From a virus (taxonomy: Duplodnaviria > Heunggongvirae > Uroviricota > Caudoviricetes), in the IMG/VR virus record IMGVR_UViG_2531839486_000015: a stretch of DNA of 13,044 nucleotides. One strand, written 5' to 3'. The notes under the pieces are model-generated. The model was not told the origin of the DNA and ran no database searches. It saw only the letters and a program-made list of their open reading frames with translations. The translations under genes and the position numbers were made by a program. Below, one piece after another: positions 750 to 12,110 of this stretch; the first letter of the stretch is position 1; the number at the start of each line of letters is the position of its first letter.

Positions 750-1193
750 ATGAACTCAGTATTCTTTTCACCCGGAAGTAAAAGTTTTTATCTGCAAGAA
801 TTGTTTCCAGAATATGAGGATGCGGGAACGCTTCCTGATGATGTTATTGAAATTACCAGAGAAACATATGAGCAATTTCTTGGGCTGCATCCTGAAGGGA
901 AAGAGATTGGCGCTGACAGTTCAGGACGGCCAGTATGGATTAATTCCCCACCACCTTCAAAAGAGGATGAGGTATTGACGGCTGAAATGAAAAAAATATC
1001 TTTGGTTTCAGAAGCCAATACCTACATCAATACCCATCAGTGGCCTGGCAAAGCTGCTATTGGTCGTCTGAAAGGTGACGAGCTGGAACAATATAATTTA
1101 TGGCTGGATTATCTGGACGCACTGGAACTGGTTGATCCCTCCAGTGCTCCAGATATTGAATGGCCTACGCCTCCGGCAGTTCAGGCCAGATGA
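750..1193 (+). CDS. Tail-fibre assembly chaperone (Tfa family), cassette A
   Basis: 147 aa; position directly after the tail-fibre cassette; C-terminal ...DIEWPTPP... motif resembles the conserved Tfa C-terminus (compare cassette B ...VIWPELPEA). Confidence 0.7.
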   Translation: MNSVFFSPGSKSFYLQELFPEYEDAGTLPDDVIEITRETYEQFLGLHPEGKEIGADSSGRPVWINSPPPSKEDEVLTAEMKKISLVSEANTYINTHQWPGKAAIGRLKGDELEQYNLWLDYLDALELVDPSSAPDIEWPTPPAVQAR

Positions 1194-1767
1194 CATTCGG
1201 CACGGTGCTGGTATCTGTTGCCATCACCGCGTCAATATAATCCAGCACAGCGTTAAGCCGGGTTGTTTCTGCCTGCGTCAGTTTCCGTCCGGCCTGTAAT
1301 TTCAGCTGAATCAGACTGATGGAAGCCATTGCAGCATCAATCAGTGACTGGCGCTGTGCTTCTGCCGCGTCTACTGCGGCGTTATGCTGTGCTTCAGTAT
1401 CGGTCACCCATTTCTCACCATCCCATTTATCGTATGGAGATAAAGGGGCGATAGTGGTTGTATTTTCAGGGTAATCACCCGGAGCTTTGATTTCTTTTGA
1501 TTCTCCTGTTTCAGTGCTATAGACAATTTCACCACGGTGGTCTGGCACATATATCCATGAGTTAAAATCTTCAGAACGGCAAATTGCATAACCAGTTTTG
1601 TATGGGCCAGGAGCATCTAAACAGGAACATGCCGGAATGCCGACACCAATGGCAAGATATTCGGTTGATGTGGAAATATATTCCCGTGATTCACCATCAT
1701 AGTTATAGACGGAAATATTCCCCGCCTTCGTGGCAATAAGCTCGCTATTTAATACGGCGTTATCCAT
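1165..1767 (-). CDS. Tail-fibre assembly chaperone (Tfa family), cassette B
   Basis: 200 aa; N-terminus MDNAVLNSELIA... and C-terminus ...RLNAVLDYIDAV...VIWPELPEA are typical of lambdoid/Mu-type Tfa proteins. Start codon overlaps the stop of the upstream minus-strand tail-fibre cassette (TAATG at 1765-1769). Confidence 0.8.
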   Translation of the reverse strand: MDNAVLNSELIATKAGNISVYNYDGESREYISTSTEYLAIGVGIPACSCLDAPGPYKTGYAICRSEDFNSWIYVPDHRGEIVYSTETGESKEIKAPGDYPENTTTIAPLSPYDKWDGEKWVTDTEAQHNAAVDAAEAQRQSLIDAAMASISLIQLKLQAGRKLTQAETTRLNAVLDYIDAVMATDTSTVPNVIWPELPEA

Positions 1768-2306
1768 TATGCAGCCCTCACGATATAGTTAAATGCAATA
1801 TTACGTGGACGCGTTTCTGAGGCTGCGGCACCTAAACCAGCCACTGATTGTTTATATGTTTTAAAGGTTCCATAATCCGGTGCTGGTAATCCGGCATCGT
1901 TTGTGTTTCCTCTTTTGATAATGTCAGTGCCACTATTTACCCAGCTTTCATCAAAATAAAAATTAATCGTTGCATCAGTCACAATCGTGGATCTTGACGG
2001 TAATCCATGAGCATGATCCTCCGTTGCATACCCCTGAACAGTGAGAAGACTTCGCCCATTATCTACACCACGCCCATCATCCCAGCCACGAATAAACTCA
2101 CCGCGTAAATCAGGCAATTTATTTGTCGGGTAAGCCTTCGCCAGCTTAGGATATTCAACGGCAGAAAAAGCCGCACCGTTACATTTCAGCCAGCCAGTAG
2201 GCGGTGTTGCAGAAGGCCACGGAACAGGCACACCAACGGGTAATGCCGAACCTTCTCCCAAACCAACGTTTAAGAAAATGCAGCGATTACGACTAACTGG
2301 CATCAT
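1767..2306 (-). CDS. Tail-fibre C-terminal variable cassette B with phage tail-collar-like domain
   Basis: 179 aa; after the shared 18-aa leader it contains ...WPSATPPTGWLKCNGAAFSAVEYPKLA...LPDLRGEFIRGWDDGRG..., the hallmark motif of the phage tail-fibre collar domain. Confidence 0.7.
   Translation of the reverse strand: MMPVSRNRCIFLNVGLGEGSALPVGVPVPWPSATPPTGWLKCNGAAFSAVEYPKLAKAYPTNKLPDLRGEFIRGWDDGRGVDNGRSLLTVQGYATEDHAHGLPSRSTIVTDATINFYFDESWVNSGTDIIKRGNTNDAGLPAPDYGTFKTYKQSVAGLGAAASETRPRNIAFNYIVRAA
2253..2278. other. 26-bp Hin/Gin-type inversion crossover site (right): ttctcccaaacc-aa-cgtttaagaaaa, inverted relative to 281-306
   Basis: Inverted copy of the 281-306 site, differing at one base in the outer half-site (2273 vs 286). 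It sits 50-56 bp upstream of the invertase start. Confidence 0.65.
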
Positions 2307-2558
2307 CCCCGATTTTTATTCAAGGAGATGATCATGCTTATTGGCTATGTACGCGTGTCAACAAATGACCAGAACACCGATTTGCAACGTAGTGCGCTGA
2401 ACTGCGCGGGATGTGAGCGGATTTTTGAGGATAAAATCAGCGGCACTAAGTCCGACAGACCGGGGCTGAAAAAACTGCTCAGGACACTATCGGCAGGAGA
2501 CACGCTGGTTGTCTGGAAGCTGGACAGGTTGGGGCGCAGTATGCGGCATCTTGTTACG
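2253..2558. repeat. Right arm of the long inverted repeat; covers the crossover site, the invertase leader and the first 75 codons of the invertase
   Basis: Same comparison as the left arm. The right arm extends at least to 2558 and may be longer, since the left arm is cut by the window edge. Confidence 0.9.
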
Positions 2559-2900
2559 CTGATAGAAGAGTTACGCCAGCGTGGTGTGAATTTCAGAAGC
2601 CTGACTGACAGTATTGATACCAGTACCCCAATGGGCCGTTTCTTTTTTCATGTCATGGGTGCCCTGGCTGAAATGGAACGCGAACTGATAGTTGAACGTA
2701 CCAGGGCAGGGCTGGCTGCAGCTCGTGCCAAAGGCAGAGTAGGTGGACGCCGTCCTAAGTTGACCACCGAACAGTGGGCACAGATTGGGCGTTTACTCGA
2801 GGCCGGAGAATCAAGACAGCGTATTGCACTGATTTTTGATGTAGGCGTTTCTACCATTTATAGAAAATTTCCGGCAAATAAGAGCAATGAATCCCCCTGA
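2334..2900 (+). CDS. Site-specific serine DNA invertase, Gin/Pin/Hin/Cin family
   Basis: MLIGYVRVSTNDQNTDLQR... N-terminus with catalytic Ser9 context; ...VVWKLDRLGRS...; C-terminal helix-turn-helix ...GVSTIYRKF. AAGGAG at 2322-2327 sits 6 nt before the ATG at 2334; the longer ORF from 2328 has no spacing to that Shine-Dalgarno. Confidence 0.92.
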   Translation: MLIGYVRVSTNDQNTDLQRSALNCAGCERIFEDKISGTKSDRPGLKKLLRTLSAGDTLVVWKLDRLGRSMRHLVTLIEELRQRGVNFRSLTDSIDTSTPMGRFFFHVMGALAEMERELIVERTRAGLAAARAKGRVGGRRPKLTTEQWAQIGRLLEAGESRQRIALIFDVGVSTIYRKFPANKSNESP

Positions 2901-3042: not shown

Positions 3043-4215
3043 ATGGCTCAGGATTACCACCACGGGGTGCGCGTTGTTGAAGTCAACGAAGGCACCCGAT
3101 CTATTACCACGGTGAGCACCGCCATCGTGGGTATGGTCTGCACGGGCGATGATGCCGATGCAAAAATGTTTCCTCTTAATAAACCCGTGCTGATCACTGA
3201 TGTGCTGACTGCCAGCGGTAAAGCGGGTGAGTCAGGTACTCTGGCCCGTTCGCTGGATGCCATCGCTGACCAGGCAAAACCCGTGACCATTGTTGTGCGT
3301 GTGCCGCAGGGTGAAACGGAAGACGAAACCACGACCAATATCATCGGCGCAGTGACTGCTGAAGGTAAAAAAACAGGTATGAAAGCCCTGTTATCTGCCC
3401 AGTCACAGCTCGGCGTTAAACCGCGCATTCTCGGCGTGCCAGGCCACGACACCAAGGCGGTAGCTACTGAGTTGCTAAGCGTGGCGCAAAGCCTGCGTGG
3501 ATTTGCTTACCTGTCAGCGTATGGCTGCAAGACAGTGCAGGAGGCGATCACTTACCGCGAAAACTTCAGCCAGCGTGAAGGGATGCTGATCTGGCCTGAC
3601 TTTACTGGCTGGGACACGGTGCTGAATGCCGAAGCAACGGCATATGCCACCGCCCGTGCGCTTGGTCTGCGCGCCAAAATTGACGAGCAGACCGGATGGC
3701 ACAAAAGCCTGTCCAACGTGGGCGTGAACGGTGTCACCGGAATTTCTGCAGATGTGTTCTGGGATCTGCAGGACCCGGCAACCGATGCAGGTCTGCTGAA
3801 CCAGAACGACGTCACCACGCTTGTGCGTAAAGACGGTTTCCGCTTCTGGGGTTCCCGCTGCCTGAGTGATGACCCGCTCTTTGCCTTCGAAAACTACACC
3901 CGCACGGCGCAGGTGCTGATGGACACGATTGCAGAAGCACACATGTGGGCGGTGGATAAACCTCTTAACCCGTCGCTGGCCCGCGACATTATCGAAGGTA
4001 TCCGCGCCAAAATGCGCAGCCTGGTCAGTCAGGGCTATCTCATTGGTGGTGATTGCTGGCTGGATGAGTCGGTGAACGACAAAGACACGCTGAAAGCCGG
4101 AAAACTCACCATCGACTATGACTACACGCCAGTGCCGCCACTTGAAAATCTGATGCTGCGCCAGCGCATCACCGATCAGTACCTGGTGAATTTTGCCAGC
4201 CAGGTCAGCGCGTAA
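3043..4215 (+). CDS. FI: Contractile tail sheath protein (P2 gpFI-like)
   Basis: 390 aa; N-terminus [19 protein letters not shown]...[10 protein letters not shown]... is characteristic of P2 FI sheath; AGGAGG Shine-Dalgarno 9 nt upstream; first gene of the late operon. Confidence 0.9.
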
Positions 4216-5097: not shown

Positions 5098-5231
5098 CGG
5101 TTGACGATCTGGTGGCAGATATCGCCACCATTTTTCACTGGCCGCCATCCGTTACTGACGTTATGCCGCTGACCGAAGTGCTGGAATGGCGGTATAAAGC
5201 GATTCAGAGAAGCGGGGCCAACGATGAGTGA
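4795..5231 (+). CDS. E: Tail assembly chaperone gpE+E' (-1 programmed frameshift product; join 4795..5058 with 5058..5231)
   Basis: After a -1 slip at 5052-5058 the -1 frame stays open for 57 codons (VEEVGACRFTDSLTVDDLVADIATIFHWPPSVTDVMPLTEVLEWRYKAIQRSGANDE) to TGA at 5229-5231, overlapping the T start at 5224. Total about 145 aa, close to P2 E+E' size as I recall it. Confidence 0.65.
5052..5058 (+). other. -1 ribosomal frameshift slippery heptamer TTTTTTG (X_XXY_YYZ in the gpE frame)
   Basis: Codons ACT TTT TTG in the E frame; heptamer directly visible in the sequence. Confidence 0.65.
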
Positions 5232-8200
5232 TAACAACCTGCGTCTGCAGGTCATTCTTAATGCGGTTGACAAGCTCACCCGCCCATTTCGATCTGCGCA
5301 GGCCAGTTCAAGAGAACTGGCTGCTGCTGTCAAAAAATCCCGCGATGCAATAAAGCAGCTTGATCAGGCCGGGAGCAGTCTGGACAGCTTCCGAAAGCTG
5401 CAGGCAGAAAATCAGAAATTAGGCGACAGGCTGAACTATGCCCGCCAGCGTGCAAATTTGCTCAGTCAGGAACTGGGTGCGATGGGGCCGCCTTCGCAAC
5501 GTCAGGTTGTTGCTCTGGGCCGTCAACGGCTGGCTGTTCAGCGCCTGGAAGAACGCCAGAAAAAGCTGCAGCAGCAGACGGCGCTTGTGCGTGCTGAACT
5601 GTACCGGGCGGGAATTTCTGCGAAAGACGATGCGGGAGCAACTGCCCGTTTAGCCCGTGAAACATCACGTTATAACCAGGAACTTTCGAAACAGGAGGCG
5701 CGGCTGAAGCGACTGGGGGAAGCTCAGCGCAGGATGAATGCAGCGCGTGTCAGTTATGCCCGTTCGCTGGAGGTGCGTGATCGTATTGCAGGTGCCGGAG
5801 CCACCACCACGGCTGCAGGGCTGGCAATGGGCGCACCAGTGATGGCGGCAGTAAAAAGCTATACCAGCATGGAAGATGCCATGAAAGGTGTGGCAAAGCA
5901 GGTCAATGGTCTGCGTGACGATAATGGCAACCGCACTGCACGTTTTTATGAAATGCAGGATGCCATCAAGGCTGCCAGCGAACAGTTGCCGATGGAAAAC
6001 GGTGCGGTGGATTTCGCTGCACTGGTTGAAGGTGGTGCGCGCATGAACGTCGCAAACCCTGACGACAGTTGGGAAGATCAGAAACGTGACCTGCTGGCCT
6101 TCGCCAGTACGGCAGCAAAGGCGGCAACAGCCTTTGAGCTGCCAGCGGATGAACTGTCAGAAAGTCTGGGGAAAATCGCCCAGCTCTACAAAATCCCCAC
6201 CCGCAATATTGAACAGCTCGGTGATGCGCTGAACTATCTGGATGATAACGCCATGTCGAAAGGGGCAGACATCATTGATGTGATGCAACGTCTGGGCGGT
6301 GTGGCTGACCGTCTGGATTATCGTAAAGCGGCGGCGCTGGGTTCCACCTTCCTGACACTGGGCGCTGCGCCAGAGGTTGCAGCCAGTGCAGCAAACGCGA
6401 TGGTGCGTGAATTGTCCATTGCCACCATGCAAAGCAAAAGTTTCTTTGAAGGGATGAATCTGCTGAAACTCAATCCTGAAGTGATTGAAAAGCAGATGAC
6501 GAAGGATGCGATGGGAACCATCCAGCGCGTGCTGGAGAAGGTAAACGCGCTGCCGCAGGACAAGCGCCTGTCTGCCATGACTATGTTGTTTGGTAAAGAG
6601 TTTGGCGATGACGCGGCGAAACTGGCAAACAACCTGCCGGAACTGCAGCGTCAGTTAAAACTGACAGCGGGCAATGATGCGCTCGGCTCCATGCAGAAAG
6701 AATCCGACATTAACAAGGATTCACTTTCTGCGCAGTGGTTGCTGGTCAAAACCGGAGCGCAGAACACCTTCAGCAGCCTGGGCGAAACGCTGCGCCAGCC
6801 GCTGATGGATATTCTGTACACGGTGAAAAGCGTCACGGGGGCGTTGCGTCGCTGGGTGGAAGCTAACCCGGAACTGACAGGCACACTGATGAAAGCATCG
6901 GCTGTTGTGGCTGCGGTTACCGTCGGCCTCGGCACCTTAGCGGTGGCGCTGGCTGCAGTGCTGGGGCCGCTGGCAGTGATCCGTCTGGGATTCTCTGTGT
7001 TGGGTATCAAAACGTTATCTTCCGTTACGGCAGCAGTAACTCGAACCAGCAGCGCGTTGTCCTGGCTGGCTGGCGCGCCACTGGCACTGCTGCGACGCGG
7101 GCTTGCTTCATCGGGCAACGCCGCAGGGTTACTTACTGCGCCGTTGTCGTCTTTGCGCCGCACGGCATCACTGACGGGAAATGTCCTGAAAACTGTAGCA
7201 GGTGCGCCGGTTGCACTTTTGCGGTCTGGATTATCCGGTTTACGTGCTGTTGCTGTGATGTTTATGAATCCTCTGGCGGTACTGCGCGGTGGACTGGCCG
7301 CCGCAGGCACGGTGCTGCGAGTACTGGCATCTGGTCCACTGGCGATGCTGCGCGTTGCCCTGTATGCCATATCTGGTCTGTTAGGTGCTCTGCTCAGTCC
7401 GATAGGTCTTGTGGTTACTGCACTGGCGGGCGTGGCGCTGGTTGTCTGGAAATACTGGCAACCCATCACCGCATTTCTCGGTGGCGTGGTGGAAGGATTC
7501 AAAGCGGCGGCAGGTCCCATCAGTGCAGCGTTCGAACCGCTTAAGCCCGTGTTCCAGTGGATTGGCGACAAAGTGCAGGCGCTGTGGGGCTGGTTTACTG
7601 ATCTGCTGACGCCCGTTAAGTCGACCTCTGCCGAACTGCAGAGCGCAGCGGCAATGGGGCGACGATTCGGGGAGGCACTGGCGGAAGGGCTGAATATGGT
7701 CATGCATCCGCTGGACTCCCTGAAATCCGGCGTTTCCTGGTTGCTGGATAAACTCGGCATTGTCAGTAAAGAGGCTGCAAAGGCGAAACTGCCGGAAAGC
7801 GTGACGCGTCAGCAACCTGCGACGGTGAATGCAGACGGTAAAGTGATGATGCCATCGGGTGGTTTTCCGTCATGGGGATATGGCTTTGCGGGGATGTATG
7901 ACAGCGGCGGCTATATCCCGCGCGGGCAGTTCGGCATTGTCGGTGAAAACGGGCCGGAAATTGTCAACGGTCCGGCAAACGTGACCAGCCGGAGAAATAC
8001 CGCTGCACTGGCTGCGGTTGTCGCCGGAATGATGGGAGTTGCTGCCGCGCCAGCAGAGCTTCCACCGTTGCATCCTTTGGCGCTTCCCGCGAAAGGCGGT
8101 GAAGCGATGGTGAGTCGCGTAGCTGCTGTGCCGCCCGTTCACCGGATTGAGGCACCGACGCAGATCATCATCCAGACGCAGCCAGGACAAAGTGCGCAGG

Positions 8201-8301
8201 ATATTGCGCGGGAGGTGGCCCGCCAGCTTGATGAACGTGAACGCAGGCTGAAGGCAAAAGCCAGGAGTAACTACAGCGATCAGGGGGGATACGACGCATG
8301 A
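5224..8301 (+). CDS. T: Tail tape measure protein (P2 gpT-like)
   Basis: 1025 aa; coiled-coil-rich N-terminal third, a central hydrophobic region with tandem ~22-aa repeats, and its position after E/E'. Confidence 0.9.
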   Translation: MSDNNLRLQVILNAVDKLTRPFRSAQASSRELAAAVKKSRDAIKQLDQAGSSLDSFRKLQAENQKLGDRLNYARQRANLLSQELGAMGPPSQRQVVALGRQRLAVQRLEERQKKLQQQTALVRAELYRAGISAKDDAGATARLARETSRYNQELSKQEARLKRLGEAQRRMNAARVSYARSLEVRDRIAGAGATTTAAGLAMGAPVMAAVKSYTSMEDAMKGVAKQVNGLRDDNGNRTARFYEMQDAIKAASEQLPMENGAVDFAALVEGGARMNVANPDDSWEDQKRDLLAFASTAAKAATAFELPADELSESLGKIAQLYKIPTRNIEQLGDALNYLDDNAMSKGADIIDVMQRLGGVADRLDYRKAAALGSTFLTLGAAPEVAASAANAMVRELSIATMQSKSFFEGMNLLKLNPEVIEKQMTKDAMGTIQRVLEKVNALPQDKRLSAMTMLFGKEFGDDAAKLANNLPELQRQLKLTAGNDALGSMQKESDINKDSLSAQWLLVKTGAQNTFSSLGETLRQPLMDILYTVKSVTGALRRWVEANPELTGTLMKASAVVAAVTVGLGTLAVALAAVLGPLAVIRLGFSVLGIKTLSSVTAAVTRTSSALSWLAGAPLALLRRGLASSGNAAGLLTAPLSSLRRTASLTGNVLKTVAGAPVALLRSGLSGLRAVAVMFMNPLAVLRGGLAAAGTVLRVLASGPLAMLRVALYAISGLLGALLSPIGLVVTALAGVALVVWKYWQPITAFLGGVVEGFKAAAGPISAAFEPLKPVFQWIGDKVQALWGWFTDLLTPVKSTSAELQSAAAMGRRFGEALAEGLNMVMHPLDSLKSGVSWLLDKLGIVSKEAAKAKLPESVTRQQPATVNADGKVMMPSGGFPSWGYGFAGMYDSGGYIPRGQFGIVGENGPEIVNGPANVTSRRNTAALAAVVAGMMGVAAAPAELPPLHPLALPAKGGEAMVSRVAAVPPVHRIEAPTQIIIQTQPGQSAQDIAREVARQLDERERRLKAKARSNYSDQGGYDA

Positions 8302-8783
8302 TGATGGTGCTGGGATTGTACGTGTTTATGCTGCGCACCGTTCCGTATCAGGAACTGCAGTATCAACGCAGCTGGCGACATGCGGCAAACAGTCGGGTAA
8401 ACCGACGTCCGTCCACGCAGTTTCTGGGACCGGAAAACGACATGCTGACGCTTTCCGGTGTTCTTATGCCGGAAATAACAGGCGGCAGGCTGTCGTTGCT
8501 GGCACTGGAGCAGATGGCAGAACAGGGGAAAGCATGGCCCCTGATTGAAGGCAGCGGCACGATTTACGGCATGTATGTGATTGAGGGACTGAATCAGACT
8601 AAAACGGAGTTTTTCCGCGACGGTATGCCGCGCCGGATTGAGTTCACCCTGTCGCTAAAACGCGTGGATGAATCCCTGCCCGATATGTTCGGTGATCTCA
8701 GTGCGCAACTGAATAATCTGCAGGGAACGGCAACATCTGCCTTAAGCGATATCAGTAAAACGGTGGGAGGGCTGCTGTCGTGA
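8298..8783 (+). CDS. U: Tail protein gpU-like
   Basis: 161 aa; ATGA start/stop overlap with T; position and size match P2 U. Confidence 0.8.
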   Translation: MMMVLGLYVFMLRTVPYQELQYQRSWRHAANSRVNRRPSTQFLGPENDMLTLSGVLMPEITGGRLSLLALEQMAEQGKAWPLIEGSGTIYGMYVIEGLNQTKTEFFRDGMPRRIEFTLSLKRVDESLPDMFGDLSAQLNNLQGTATSALSDISKTVGGLLS

Positions 8784-9880
8784 ATTTCAGCTCTGAACTG
8801 CTTAACAAAGGCAACAAAACTCCGGCATTCAGCATCAGTATTGAAGGCAGGGATATCACCACTGTGCTGGACAACCGCCTGATGGGGCTGACGCTGACGG
8901 ATAACCGGGGCTTTGAAGCGGACCAGCTTGATCTGGAGCTGGACGACGCCGATGGAAAAATCGTGCTGCCGCGCCGTGGTGCGGTCATTACGCTGGCGCT
9001 GGGCTGGAAGGGGCAGCCGCTTTTCCCGAAAGGGGCATTCACGGTGGACGAGATTGAACACACTGGCGCACCGGACCGCCTGACTATCCGGGCGCGAAGT
9101 GCTGATTTTCGTGAAACGCTGAATACCCGTCGTGAAAAGTCGTGGCACAAGACCACTGTCGGGGAAGTGGTGAAGGAAATAGCCGCGCGTCATAAGCTGA
9201 AGATGGCACTGGGTAAAGACCTGTCGGATAAGCCCGTGGAGCATATAGACCAGACTAATGAGAGTGACGGCAGTTTTCTGATGCGGCTGGCGCGCCAGTA
9301 CGGTGCCATCGCGTCGGTGAAAAATGGCAATCTGTTATTCATCCGGCAGGGACAGGGCAAAAGCGCCAGCGGTAAACCACTGCCGGTGATCTCAATCACA
9401 CGTAAGGACGGCGACAGTCACCGCTTTACCCTGGCAGATCGCGGAGCCTACACGGGCGTAATTGCCAGTTGGTTGCATACCCGCGAACCCGCGAAGAAAG
9501 AAAGCACCACGGTGAAGCGTAAGCGCAGGACTAAGAAGCAGAAGAAAGAGCCGGAAGCGAAGCAGGGCGATTACCTGGGGGGTACGGATGAAAACGTGCT
9601 GGTACTTAATCGCACTTATGCCAACCGGAGCAACGCCGAACGGGCAGCGAAAATGCAGTGGGAACGCCTGCAACGCGGCGTTGCATCATTCTCGCTACAA
9701 CTGGCGGAAGGGCGGGCAGATCTCTACACAGAAATGCCTGTGAAGGTCAGTGGCTTTAAACAGCCGATAGATGATGCGGAATGGACCATTACGACTCTGA
9801 CGCATACCGTCAGCCCCGATAACGGTTTTACAACCAGTCTGGAGCTTGAAGTGAGGATTGATGATTTCGAAATGGAATGA
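8780..9880 (+). CDS. D: Tail protein gpD-like (late gene D)
   Basis: 366 aa; GTG start overlapping the U stop, with GGGAGG Shine-Dalgarno 9 nt upstream; position before ogr as in P2. Confidence 0.8.
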   Translation: MNFSSELLNKGNKTPAFSISIEGRDITTVLDNRLMGLTLTDNRGFEADQLDLELDDADGKIVLPRRGAVITLALGWKGQPLFPKGAFTVDEIEHTGAPDRLTIRARSADFRETLNTRREKSWHKTTVGEVVKEIAARHKLKMALGKDLSDKPVEHIDQTNESDGSFLMRLARQYGAIASVKNGNLLFIRQGQGKSASGKPLPVISITRKDGDSHRFTLADRGAYTGVIASWLHTREPAKKESTTVKRKRRTKKQKKEPEAKQGDYLGGTDENVLVLNRTYANRSNAERAAKMQWERLQRGVASFSLQLAEGRADLYTEMPVKVSGFKQPIDDAEWTITTLTHTVSPDNGFTTSLELEVRIDDFEME

Positions 9881-9970
9881 TTCTTCGCAATGGAGAACTT
9901 TTAAGTTTGCAAAATGGAATAATGCGGTATCATTATTGTGAATTTAGCAAAAATGGGGAGAACTCGAAAA

Positions 9971-10189
9971 ATGATGATTTGCCCACTGTGTGGAAGTGCC
10001 GCCCATACTCGTAGCAGTTTTCAGGTATCTTCATTGACCAAAGAGCGTTACAACCAGTGCCAGAACATTAACTGCAGCCATACTTTTGTTACCCATGAAA
10101 CTTTTGTTCGTTCGATTGCAACGCCAAAAGAGTCAAATCCGGTTCAGCCGCATCCAATGAAATCAGGACAGGTGGCGCTCTCTCTTTGA
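9971..10189 (+). CDS. ogr: Ogr/Delta-family zinc-finger late transcription activator
   Basis: 72 aa from the ATG at 9971: MMICPLCGSAAHTRS...KERYNQCQNINCSHTF... with C-X2-C...C-X4-C zinc finger. This length matches P2 Ogr; the longer ORF from 9938 adds 11 residues not expected in the family. Confidence 0.85.
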   Translation: MMICPLCGSAAHTRSSFQVSSLTKERYNQCQNINCSHTFVTHETFVRSIATPKESNPVQPHPMKSGQVALSL

Positions 10190-10424
10190 CGCTGCCGCCA
10201 ATTTGTCGCCATCGTTAAAAAACAGCGCTTCTAACATCATGATTTTAAAAGGCATAAATTTCAGGCAACAAAAAACCCATCAACCTTGAACCGAAATGGC
10301 GGGGGTGATGGGCTCCACAAAATGGGGACATCAAAGAAAAGCAGTGGCACTAATTAAGACTGATGCCCTGCGGAAAAGTTCTGCGGTTGTGCAAAAAAAT
10401 TTCATTTTCAGGGCAACTTCAGTT

Positions 10425-12110
10425 TTATCCTAATCCTGGCCATACCATGACGATGATTGTCCCTGCCAGCGTCAGCAGGACGTTGGCGATTGCATAGGTG
10501 CCCGCATAGCCCAGCGCCGGGATGTTACTGCGAGCTGTATCACTGATGATCTCCATTGCCGGCGCGCAGGTACGTGCGCCCATCATTGCGCCGAACAACA
10601 GCGCGCGGTTCATTCGCAATACATAAGCACCGAACAAGAAACAGATAACCACGGGCACCAGACTGACAATCAATCCGGCAATCAACATCTGACCGCCAAT
10701 CGCGCCCAGGCCGTTATTAATACCGCTACCGGCGCTCAGACCAACGCCTGCCATAAACACCATCAAGCCGAACTCTTTCACCATGCTTAATGCACCCTGC
10801 GGAATGTAACCGAAGGTCGGGTGGTTAGCACGCATAAAGCCCAGCATAATTCCGGCGAATAACAACCCGGCAGCGTTCCCCATGCCGAAACTGAATGTGC
10901 TGAACTGGAAGGTGATCATCCCGATCATCAGCCCAATAACAAAGAAGGCGCAAAATGCCAGCAGGTCAGTGACCTGGCTGTGAATCGAGATAAAGCCGAT
11001 GCGATCGGCGATGGTTTTTACGCGACGGGCATCACCGCTGACTTGTAAAACGTCACCTTTGTTAAGCACGACGTTGTCATCTATCGGCATCTCAATCTGG
11101 CTACGAATGACGCGGGTAAGGAAGCAACCGTGATCGGTCAACTTCAGTTGTGCGAGACGTTTACCTACAGCGTTATGGTTTTTAACGACCACTTCTTCAG
11201 TGACGATACGCATGTCGAGAAGGTCACGATCGAAAACTTCTTTACCGTTACGGAAGCTGGGATCGAGTCGGGCATGGGCGTCGGGATAGCCTACCAACGC
11301 TATTTCATCGCCCATTTGTAGCACGGCATCACCGTCTGGATTTGCCAGAATCCCGTTACGTCGAATACGTTCAATGTAGCAGCCGGTTTGTCGATAAATA
11401 CCCAGTTCACGCAGATTTTTGCCGTCGGTCCAGGCCACCAGCTCCGGGCCGACGCGATAGGCGCGGATCACCGGTAAATAAACCTTACGGTTGGCATCAG
11501 TGTCCAGGCCACGTTCGCGGGCGATTTGCTGGGCGCTGGTCTGTAAGTCCTGATGCTGCAATTTCGGCAAGTAACGCGCACCAACAATCAAACTCACCAG
11601 ACCGATTAAATAGGTTAAGGCATACCCGAGGCTCAGATTATCCAGTGCCAGTGAGAGCTGCCTGCTTTCCATGCCGGAATGACGCAGTGTATCGCCAGCA
11701 CCGACCAGAACCGGTGTCGACGTCATAGAGCCTGCTAACATACCGGCCGTCAGGCCAATATCCCAGCCAAACAGCTTACCTAACCCTAAGGCGATCACCA
11801 GCGCACTGCCAACCATCACCAGTGCTAACATTAGGTAATTTTTCCCATCGCGAAAAAAAATGGAAAAAAAGTTCGGTCCGGCTTCAACCCCAACACAGAA
11901 AATAAACAGCATAAAGCCAAGATTAAGCGCATCGGTGTTAATGCTGAAATGTTGTTGGCCTAATAACAGCGATACGACTAAAACGCCAATGGAATTACCC
12001 AGTTGGATCGAACCAAGTCGTAACTTTCCGAGACATAGCCCAAGCGCGAGGACCACAAATAATAACAGAATGTAATTCCCATTTAACAATTCGGCGACGT
12101 TTATATTCAC
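10425..12110 (-). CDS. ybjL: Putative transport protein YbjL (AAE-family transporter with two cytoplasmic TrkA_C domains)
   Basis: 561 aa; [38 protein letters not shown]...; GTG start; recognised as E. coli YbjL. Confidence 0.9.

Follow-up and report, generated by a model that had tools for sequence, protein, structure and literature searches.

The right-hand junction of a P2/186-family prophage with the 3′ end of the host sRNA gene rybB

The window, by which we mean the whole stretch of 13,044 nt that was analyzed, covers the late region at the right-hand end of a P2/186-family prophage, followed by host DNA (Table 1). The last phage gene, ogr, stops at 10189 and the minus-strand open reading frame (ORF) of the host gene ybjL begins at 10425, leaving a gap of 235 bp (10190 to 10424). 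The initial annotation had given the same two gene ends, which the ORFs and the Pfam matches showed to be correct. Homologues of ogr are annotated with the ATG at 9971 as their start (219 nt), and in all matching genomes the gene on the far side of the gap is annotated as ybjL; beyond it on the host side lie ybjM and then grxA. The gap had been described as AT rich. Its length was right, but its AT richness is only moderate, with a G+C content of 43% versus 52% for the whole window. No protein-coding gene lies within the gap, ARAGORN detected no tRNA or tmRNA in the window, and neither sequence inspection nor a generic terminator scan revealed a convincing ogr terminator in the phage arm. The gap is made up of 77 bp of phage DNA (10190 to 10266) and 158 bp of host DNA (10267 to 10424), the latter containing rybB and a sigma-E-like promoter.

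Table 1. Features of the window and sequences flanking the attachment core
Feature	Position	Strand	Evidence or description
Tail-fibre tip and tail-fibre assembly gene	253-747, 750-1193	+	
Alternative tail-fibre pair	1165-1767, 1767-2306	-	
Serine invertase	2328-2900		Resolvase and HTH_7 domains
Tail sheath	3043-4215		P2/186-family late gene
Tape measure	5224-8301		P2/186-family late gene
gpU	8298-8783		P2/186-family late gene
gpD	8780-9880		P2/186-family late gene
ogr (late-gene activator)	9938-10189	+	Pfam Ogr_Delta, 6.7e-22; ogr/Delta-like zinc finger in matching genomes
Phage-derived P arm of attR (ogr-proximal arm of attP)	10190-10266	+	Collinear with attP of KP12 and with attR of 4LV2017, M9682-C1 and 2018-06-4CC
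Putative integrase arm-type site P1, GCCGCCA, 186 type	10194-10200	+	Matches consensus tgccGCCActt
Putative integrase arm-type site P2, GTCGCCA	10205-10211	+	Direct repeat of P1, 11 bp start to start
Candidate IHF-like site, AATCATGATGTTA	10232-10244	-	Pattern match to consensus WATCAANNNNTTR, one mismatch
Extended 27-bp core, ATAAATTTCAGGCAACAAAAAACCCAT	10254-10280	+	27/27 with the E. coli 042-type attB; 23/27 with the K-12 type
Exact 14-bp common core, AACAAAAAACCCAT	10267-10280	+	attB (K-12), attR (window, M9682-C1, 2018-06-4CC), attL (the latter two genomes), attP (KP12)
RybB intrinsic terminator	10267-10314	-	Hairpin 10274-10314, tail UUUUUUGUU; Rfam structure line and folds
rybB, complete	10267-10348	-	Rfam RF00110
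Sigma-E-like promoter of rybB	10355-10381	-	GAACTT, 16-nt spacer, TCTTA, 6 nt to start at 10348; script pattern
ybjL (aspartate:alanine antiporter family), host gene bounding the gap	10425-12110	-	Pfam Asp-Al_Ex, 7.2e-84, and TrkA_C
attB flanks			rcdA...GTTTTAGAT core CAACCTTG
attR flanks (window)			...TTTCAGGC core CAACCTTG
attL flanks			rcdA...GTTTTAGAT core TTATGTAAATGGG...int
attP flanks (Klebsiella phage KP12)			ogr...TTTCAGAC core TTATGTAAACGGG...int

The host part of the gap contains a complete copy of the small RNA (sRNA) gene rybB. A covariance-model scan matched RybB (Rfam RF00110) on the minus strand at 10267 to 10345 with a score of 100.3 bits (E = 3.3e-21), above the gathering threshold of 40, and the match spans the full model, positions 1 to 79 of 79. 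We placed the transcript start at 10348 by the known 5′ end of RybB, GCCACUGC. The expression of RybB is sigma-E dependent, and upstream of this start a sigma-E-like promoter pattern has the right spacing (Table 1). In the K-12 locus (L001), rybB likewise lies between rcdA (ybjK) and ybjL, and its 82-nt stretch differs from that of the window by one base. The intrinsic terminator of RybB escaped the generic scan, which returned nothing between 9850 and 10500, because the loop of its hairpin exceeds the 8-nt limit of that scan. In the complete genomes that we inspected, the RefSeq annotation shows no feature under the rybB match, so that this sRNA gene is commonly unannotated, which may be the reason why the gap had first been taken to be empty.

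The single base that separates the two rybB alleles is at 10306, where the window has a G and K-12 a T. It creates a C-U mismatch in the stem of the rybB terminator and changes the energy of the predicted fold from -25.2 to -21 kcal/mol. An identical 82-nt allele was present in 1 of 5426 complete E. coli genomes, that of STEC17-190, whose site is empty. The substitution may represent a rare but genuine variant or else an error of sequencing.

To position the junction, we aligned a 1021-bp query across the gap by megablast with the 5426 complete E. coli genomes. In most of the strains without the prophage, K-12 among them, homology begins at window position 10254 (query base 375). Host homology thus resumes inside the gap, where the initial annotation had placed the right attachment site and the integration core without identifying the latter. 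We then compared directly the empty site of K-12 (rcdA to ybjL), both prophage ends in M9682-C1, the window, and the attP of Klebsiella phage KP12, and found that the exact block common to phage and host is AACAAAAAACCCAT at 10267 to 10280. This 14-mer occurs once in the window, versus 0.01 copies expected by chance. When attB, attR, attL, and attP were aligned, the core alone was common to the four, and the flanks were swapped as expected for integration. The prophage boundary is thereby set to the base: the last phage-specific base is 10266, and the core continues to 10280. The P arm (10190 to 10266) is absent from genomes with an empty site.

A direct repeat of the junction at the far end of the prophage had also been anticipated, and the same 14-mer is indeed found at attL, between rcdA and int, in related E. 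coli. The attL of the prophage under study is outside the window; the repeat was verified in related genomes whose junction region is 98 to 99.6% identical to the window, and it stands in direct orientation beside the integrase gene at the other prophage end in M9682-C1, 2018-06-4CC, and EcPF15. Among full-length matches to the window, strain 2018-06-4CC ranked first (98%); it carries a complete prophage between two cores that are 33,519 bp apart, with int adjoining rcdA and ogr adjoining ybjL. In Klebsiella phage KP12, ogr, the core, and int are contiguous, as they are in the viral contig L051, and the attL and attR annotations of Klebsiella phage 4LV2017 in GenBank fall at this core. On the left of the core, the lysogens M9682-C1 and 2018-06-4CC have host bases in attL and phage bases in attR, so that in K-12-type lysogens the crossover must fall within 10267 to 10280. 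For the genome from which the window derives, we predict an attL made up of rcdA, GATAAGTTTTAGAT or GATAAATTTCAGGC, AACAAAAAACCCAT, TTATGTAAA(T/C)GGGTT, and int.

Some genomes carry at this place a heavily deleted, IS1-riddled prophage (M9682-C1) or a truncated relative (EcPF15), as one would expect if the junction were the scar of a deletion or of illegitimate recombination in a decaying prophage rather than a bona fide attachment site. However, the attL and attR cores are exactly conserved even in these degraded elements, the same core is present in an intact prophage of 33.5 kb and in a free phage genome, and the putative arm sites described below stand at conserved distances, which together make a scar extremely improbable. 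The M9682-C1 prophage (L002, 34155 to 36710) has lost most late genes, portal and terminase leading straight to a gpD fragment, and two IS1 copies disrupt its cargo genes; both of its att junctions are intact. The EcPF15 element (L008, 15455 to 33681) is a second, diverged, and truncated P2-like element at the rybB site. Its ogr-side arm is different, as is its cargo on the attR side, with hypothetical proteins and a TPR protein adjoining int, and it shares the core and the register of the arm sites.

The core is the final 14 nt of rybB (AUGGGUUUUUUGUU on the RNA strand), that is, the 3′ half-stem of the terminator and the U tract. At attR, full-length rybB is restored by the identical copy in the phage core, and the first nonnative base comes after the U tract. 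The site had been described as an intergenic one downstream of ybjL; its location between rcdA (ybjK) and ybjL holds, but the target is not nongenic. A simple insertion between genes that targets none of them, of the kind seen for P2 at locI, would agree with the lack of any protein-coding gene or tRNA in the gap and of any RefSeq feature under the rybB match in the inspected genomes. The full-length RybB match at 10267 to 10345 with 100.3 bits, in which the core supplies the last 14 nt, already refutes such a reading, and published work explicitly names rybB as the target; we consider it very unlikely. Integration into a tRNA or tmRNA gene was ruled out by the ARAGORN result. At attL, the core and a half-stem of the phage's own fold into a hairpin followed by a U tract directly downstream of int. 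The predicted folds suggest that the core doubles as the 3′ half of an int terminator and so may function at both junctions.

The length of the identity between phage and host depends on the attB allele. Immediately to the left of the 14-mer, the phage arm in the window has the 13 bases ATAAATTTCAGGC and K-12 has ATAAGTTTTAGAT, with 9 of 13 positions identical. In the attL of EcPF15, the host side carries the phage-like 13-mer. We considered whether this 13-mer was the footprint of an earlier integration and rejected that idea, as it is a natural attB allele in empty sites: a synthetic empty-site query with the 27-mer gave a 180-nt match of 100% identity in E. coli 042. For these 13 rcdA-side bases, E. 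coli has at least three natural alleles, namely, ATAAGTTTTAGAT (K-12), ATAAATTTTAGAT, and ATAAATTTCAGGC (042 and EcPF15). The attB region concerned corresponds to window positions 10254 to 10266, to 2501 to 2513 of L001, to 15442 to 15454 of L008, and to its counterpart in E. coli 042; the intermediate allele ATAAATTTTAGAT was found in attL junctions of viral contigs. The ATAAATTTCAGGC allele is identical to the phage attP and thus extends the core to 27 bp. In Klebsiella, the identity between host and phage amounts to 19 bp (CAGGC plus the 14-mer).

The phage arm contains short motifs of the kind expected for integrase (Int) binding. Two heptamers, P1 and P2, follow the ogr stop codon directly. 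According to the attachment-site descriptions of Nilsson et al. 2011 (PMC3448106), the arm-site consensus is tgccGCCActt for 186-type integrases and tgTGGaCa for the P2 type, and the two heptamers fit the former. To compare diverged arms, further attP and attL sequences were drawn from viral contigs by a search for the core followed by TTAT. P1 lies at -73 and P2 at -62 from the core in the window, EcPF15, L033, L034, L057, and L077, and at -72 and -61 in L048; these seven P arms, all of which keep the heptamer pair, are only 28 to 69% identical overall. A near-identical tandem pair occurs on the int-side arm at +110 and +121 in 41 of 44 distinct loci, the conservation of which is not independent evidence because this pair lies inside the int coding sequence. 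Between the heptamers and the core is a candidate IHF site. The match to its consensus is perfect in some of the other P arms, and the columns T.TAA.....T.ATT, which overlap the candidate site in the window, are kept at -36 to -22 from the core across the seven diverged arms.

The segment from 10191 to 10211, which includes both heptamers, resembles the 3′ end of int over 21 bp with one base different. A remnant of an old duplication or of a rearrangement between tandem prophages would account for two copies that differ at only 1 of 21 positions and for the int-side copy being coding sequence. We dropped this explanation and regard it as quite unlikely, since in seven arms of 28 to 69% identity only the heptamer pair is kept, with its 11-bp spacing and a fixed distance to the core, and since the heptamers fit an arm consensus that was reported independently. 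Arm-type Int sites at 10194 to 10200 and 10205 to 10211 thus appear to be the better reading of the motifs.

Altogether, the segment from 10190 to 10280 is almost certainly the attR of a P2/186-family (Peduoviridae) prophage that was integrated by a tyrosine integrase into the 3′ end of rybB. We propose that attP lies between ogr and int and that its core copies the last bases of rybB, the 3′ half-stem of the terminator and the U tract. If the strands are exchanged within the 14 bp common to both, or within 27 bp in hosts with a 042-type attB, a full-length rybB would be left at attR, because the attP core copies those last bases, while at attL the core joined to the phage hairpin would provide the terminator of int. 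In the 77 bp of the phage side, the two direct 186-type arm sites would be bound by the N-terminal domain of Int, and IHF would bend the P arm at the IHF-like site, the distances to the core being fixed. The likely mechanism is a heterobivalent tyrosine-integrase intasome of the standard kind, with Int bridging arm and core sites. Excision (attL by attR) would require an excisionase of the Apl/Cox type, here presumably Apl-like because related complete prophages carry a 186-type CI/CII/Fil early region. The sequence comparisons show the position of the junction, the core and its copies at attL and attP, the overlap with rybB, and the conserved positions of the arm motifs, whereas protein binding, the exact points of cleavage, and the present ability of this prophage to excise are inferred. 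Transcription of rybB is convergent toward ogr. Given the rare substitution that weakens the predicted stem of its terminator, sigma-E-driven transcription of rybB under envelope stress might read through attR antisense into ogr and couple membrane stress to the control of the late genes; alternatively, a K-12-type attB, with 4 mismatches in the 27-bp core, might lower the frequency of integration. The geometry and the allele data permit such effects, to which we give very little credence.

The 1021-bp query matched 5419 of the 5426 complete E. coli genomes. In about 1115 of the 5426, ogr, the gap, and ybjL were all covered, meaning that the ogr-rybB junction is present, and a synthetic empty-site query found the site uninterrupted in 4227. 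These counts agree with a site that is occupied in roughly one in five complete E. coli genomes. In the related prophages, the integrase is 99 to 100% identical to that of Escherichia phage vB_EcoM-813R9 and of several Klebsiella phages, about 35 to 56% identical to other sampled Peduoviridae integrases, and about 39% identical to P2 Int.

Phage 186 targets a tRNA-Ile gene, Fels-2 and SopE-phi target the ssrA tmRNA gene, and HP1 targets a tRNA-Leu gene. Like the prophage in the window, these phages have an attP that duplicates the 3′ end of an RNA gene, which is restored at one junction, and 186 also shares with it the integrase family and the type of arm site. Unlike all of these phages, the prophage in the window targets the gene of an Hfq-dependent regulatory sRNA, of which it duplicates only the terminator half-stem and the U tract (14 to 27 bp). 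Phage P2 resembles the prophage in its gene order (D, ogr, attP, int), in arm sites that are direct repeats, and in a core of about 27 bp that tolerates attB mismatches, but it differs in the sequence of the arm sites (tgTGGaCa versus G(C/T)CGCCA here), in its chromosomal sites, and in its Cox-type switch.

The rybB gene is already known as an integration site of P2-like phages (Felsduovirus), and the junction is of a known kind. A literature search combining ybjK, P2-like, and integration returned no paper; rybB as a search term gave the relevant ones. The P2-like prophages Rybb*W, Rybb*B, and Rybb*Cr were reported at the "rybB ncRNA" of E. coli W, B, and Crooks (Archer et al. 2011, PMC3032704), and they have the same insertion site and phage type as the prophage in the window. 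Rybb*B carries retron Ec86, whereas the cargo regions of the prophage studied here are mostly outside the window. The phages PhiECO1 (E. coli HS), PhiECO2 (ATCC 8739), PhiECO3 (CFT073), and PhiSEN1 (S. Typhi CT18) were described as sharing one site and as belonging to the Fels-2 group of P2-like phages, with a CI switch and integrase arm repeats that are both of the 186 type (Nilsson et al. 2011, PMC3448106). In ATCC 8739, the attR match (3023087 to 3023205) encloses position 3023202, which was published as the left boundary of PhiECO2. These four phages differ from the prophage in the window in strain and cargo, and the portions of the text of Nilsson et al. on which we rely do not name rybB. 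A defense-island hotspot, #29, was reported within rybB in 109 genomes and with only Felsduovirus phages (Hochhauser et al. 2023, PMC10121019), Kpn38RybB is a prophage within rybB of Klebsiella pneumoniae (Hudson et al. 2014, PMC4048246), and a 2026 paper places the P2-related prophage NC-MV of E. coli NC101 between ybjL and rcdA (PMC12803456). These three cases are, like ours, Felsduovirus or P2-like phages in rybB, with no difference in the junction that matters, and the Klebsiella phages 4LV2017 and KP12 share the core of the window.

The junction implies no new biology. It is a clean example of a regulatory sRNA gene that a phage targets at its terminator end and restores, at a site known to carry antiphage defense cargo. 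For annotation, it sets the prophage boundary to the base and calls for rybB to be annotated in the gap, where gene callers and RefSeq often leave it unmarked.

At the other end of the window, the stretch from 253 to 2900 is an invertible host-range cassette of the Mu G/P1 C type. Positions 1 to 307 are a perfect inverted copy of 2252 to 2558 (307 nt, 100% complementary), and this repeat covers 231 nt at the 5′ end of the Gin/Cin-type invertase gene (2328 to 2900) as well as the start of the alternative tail-fibre tip ORF (1767 to 2306, minus strand). With other genomes, the alignment begins only at about base 290. Most likely, the repeat is not a real structure but an assembly fold-back through the invertible tail-fibre segment, both orientations of which would have been present in the culture. 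Such a fold-back, if true, would also explain why the contig stops at this end.
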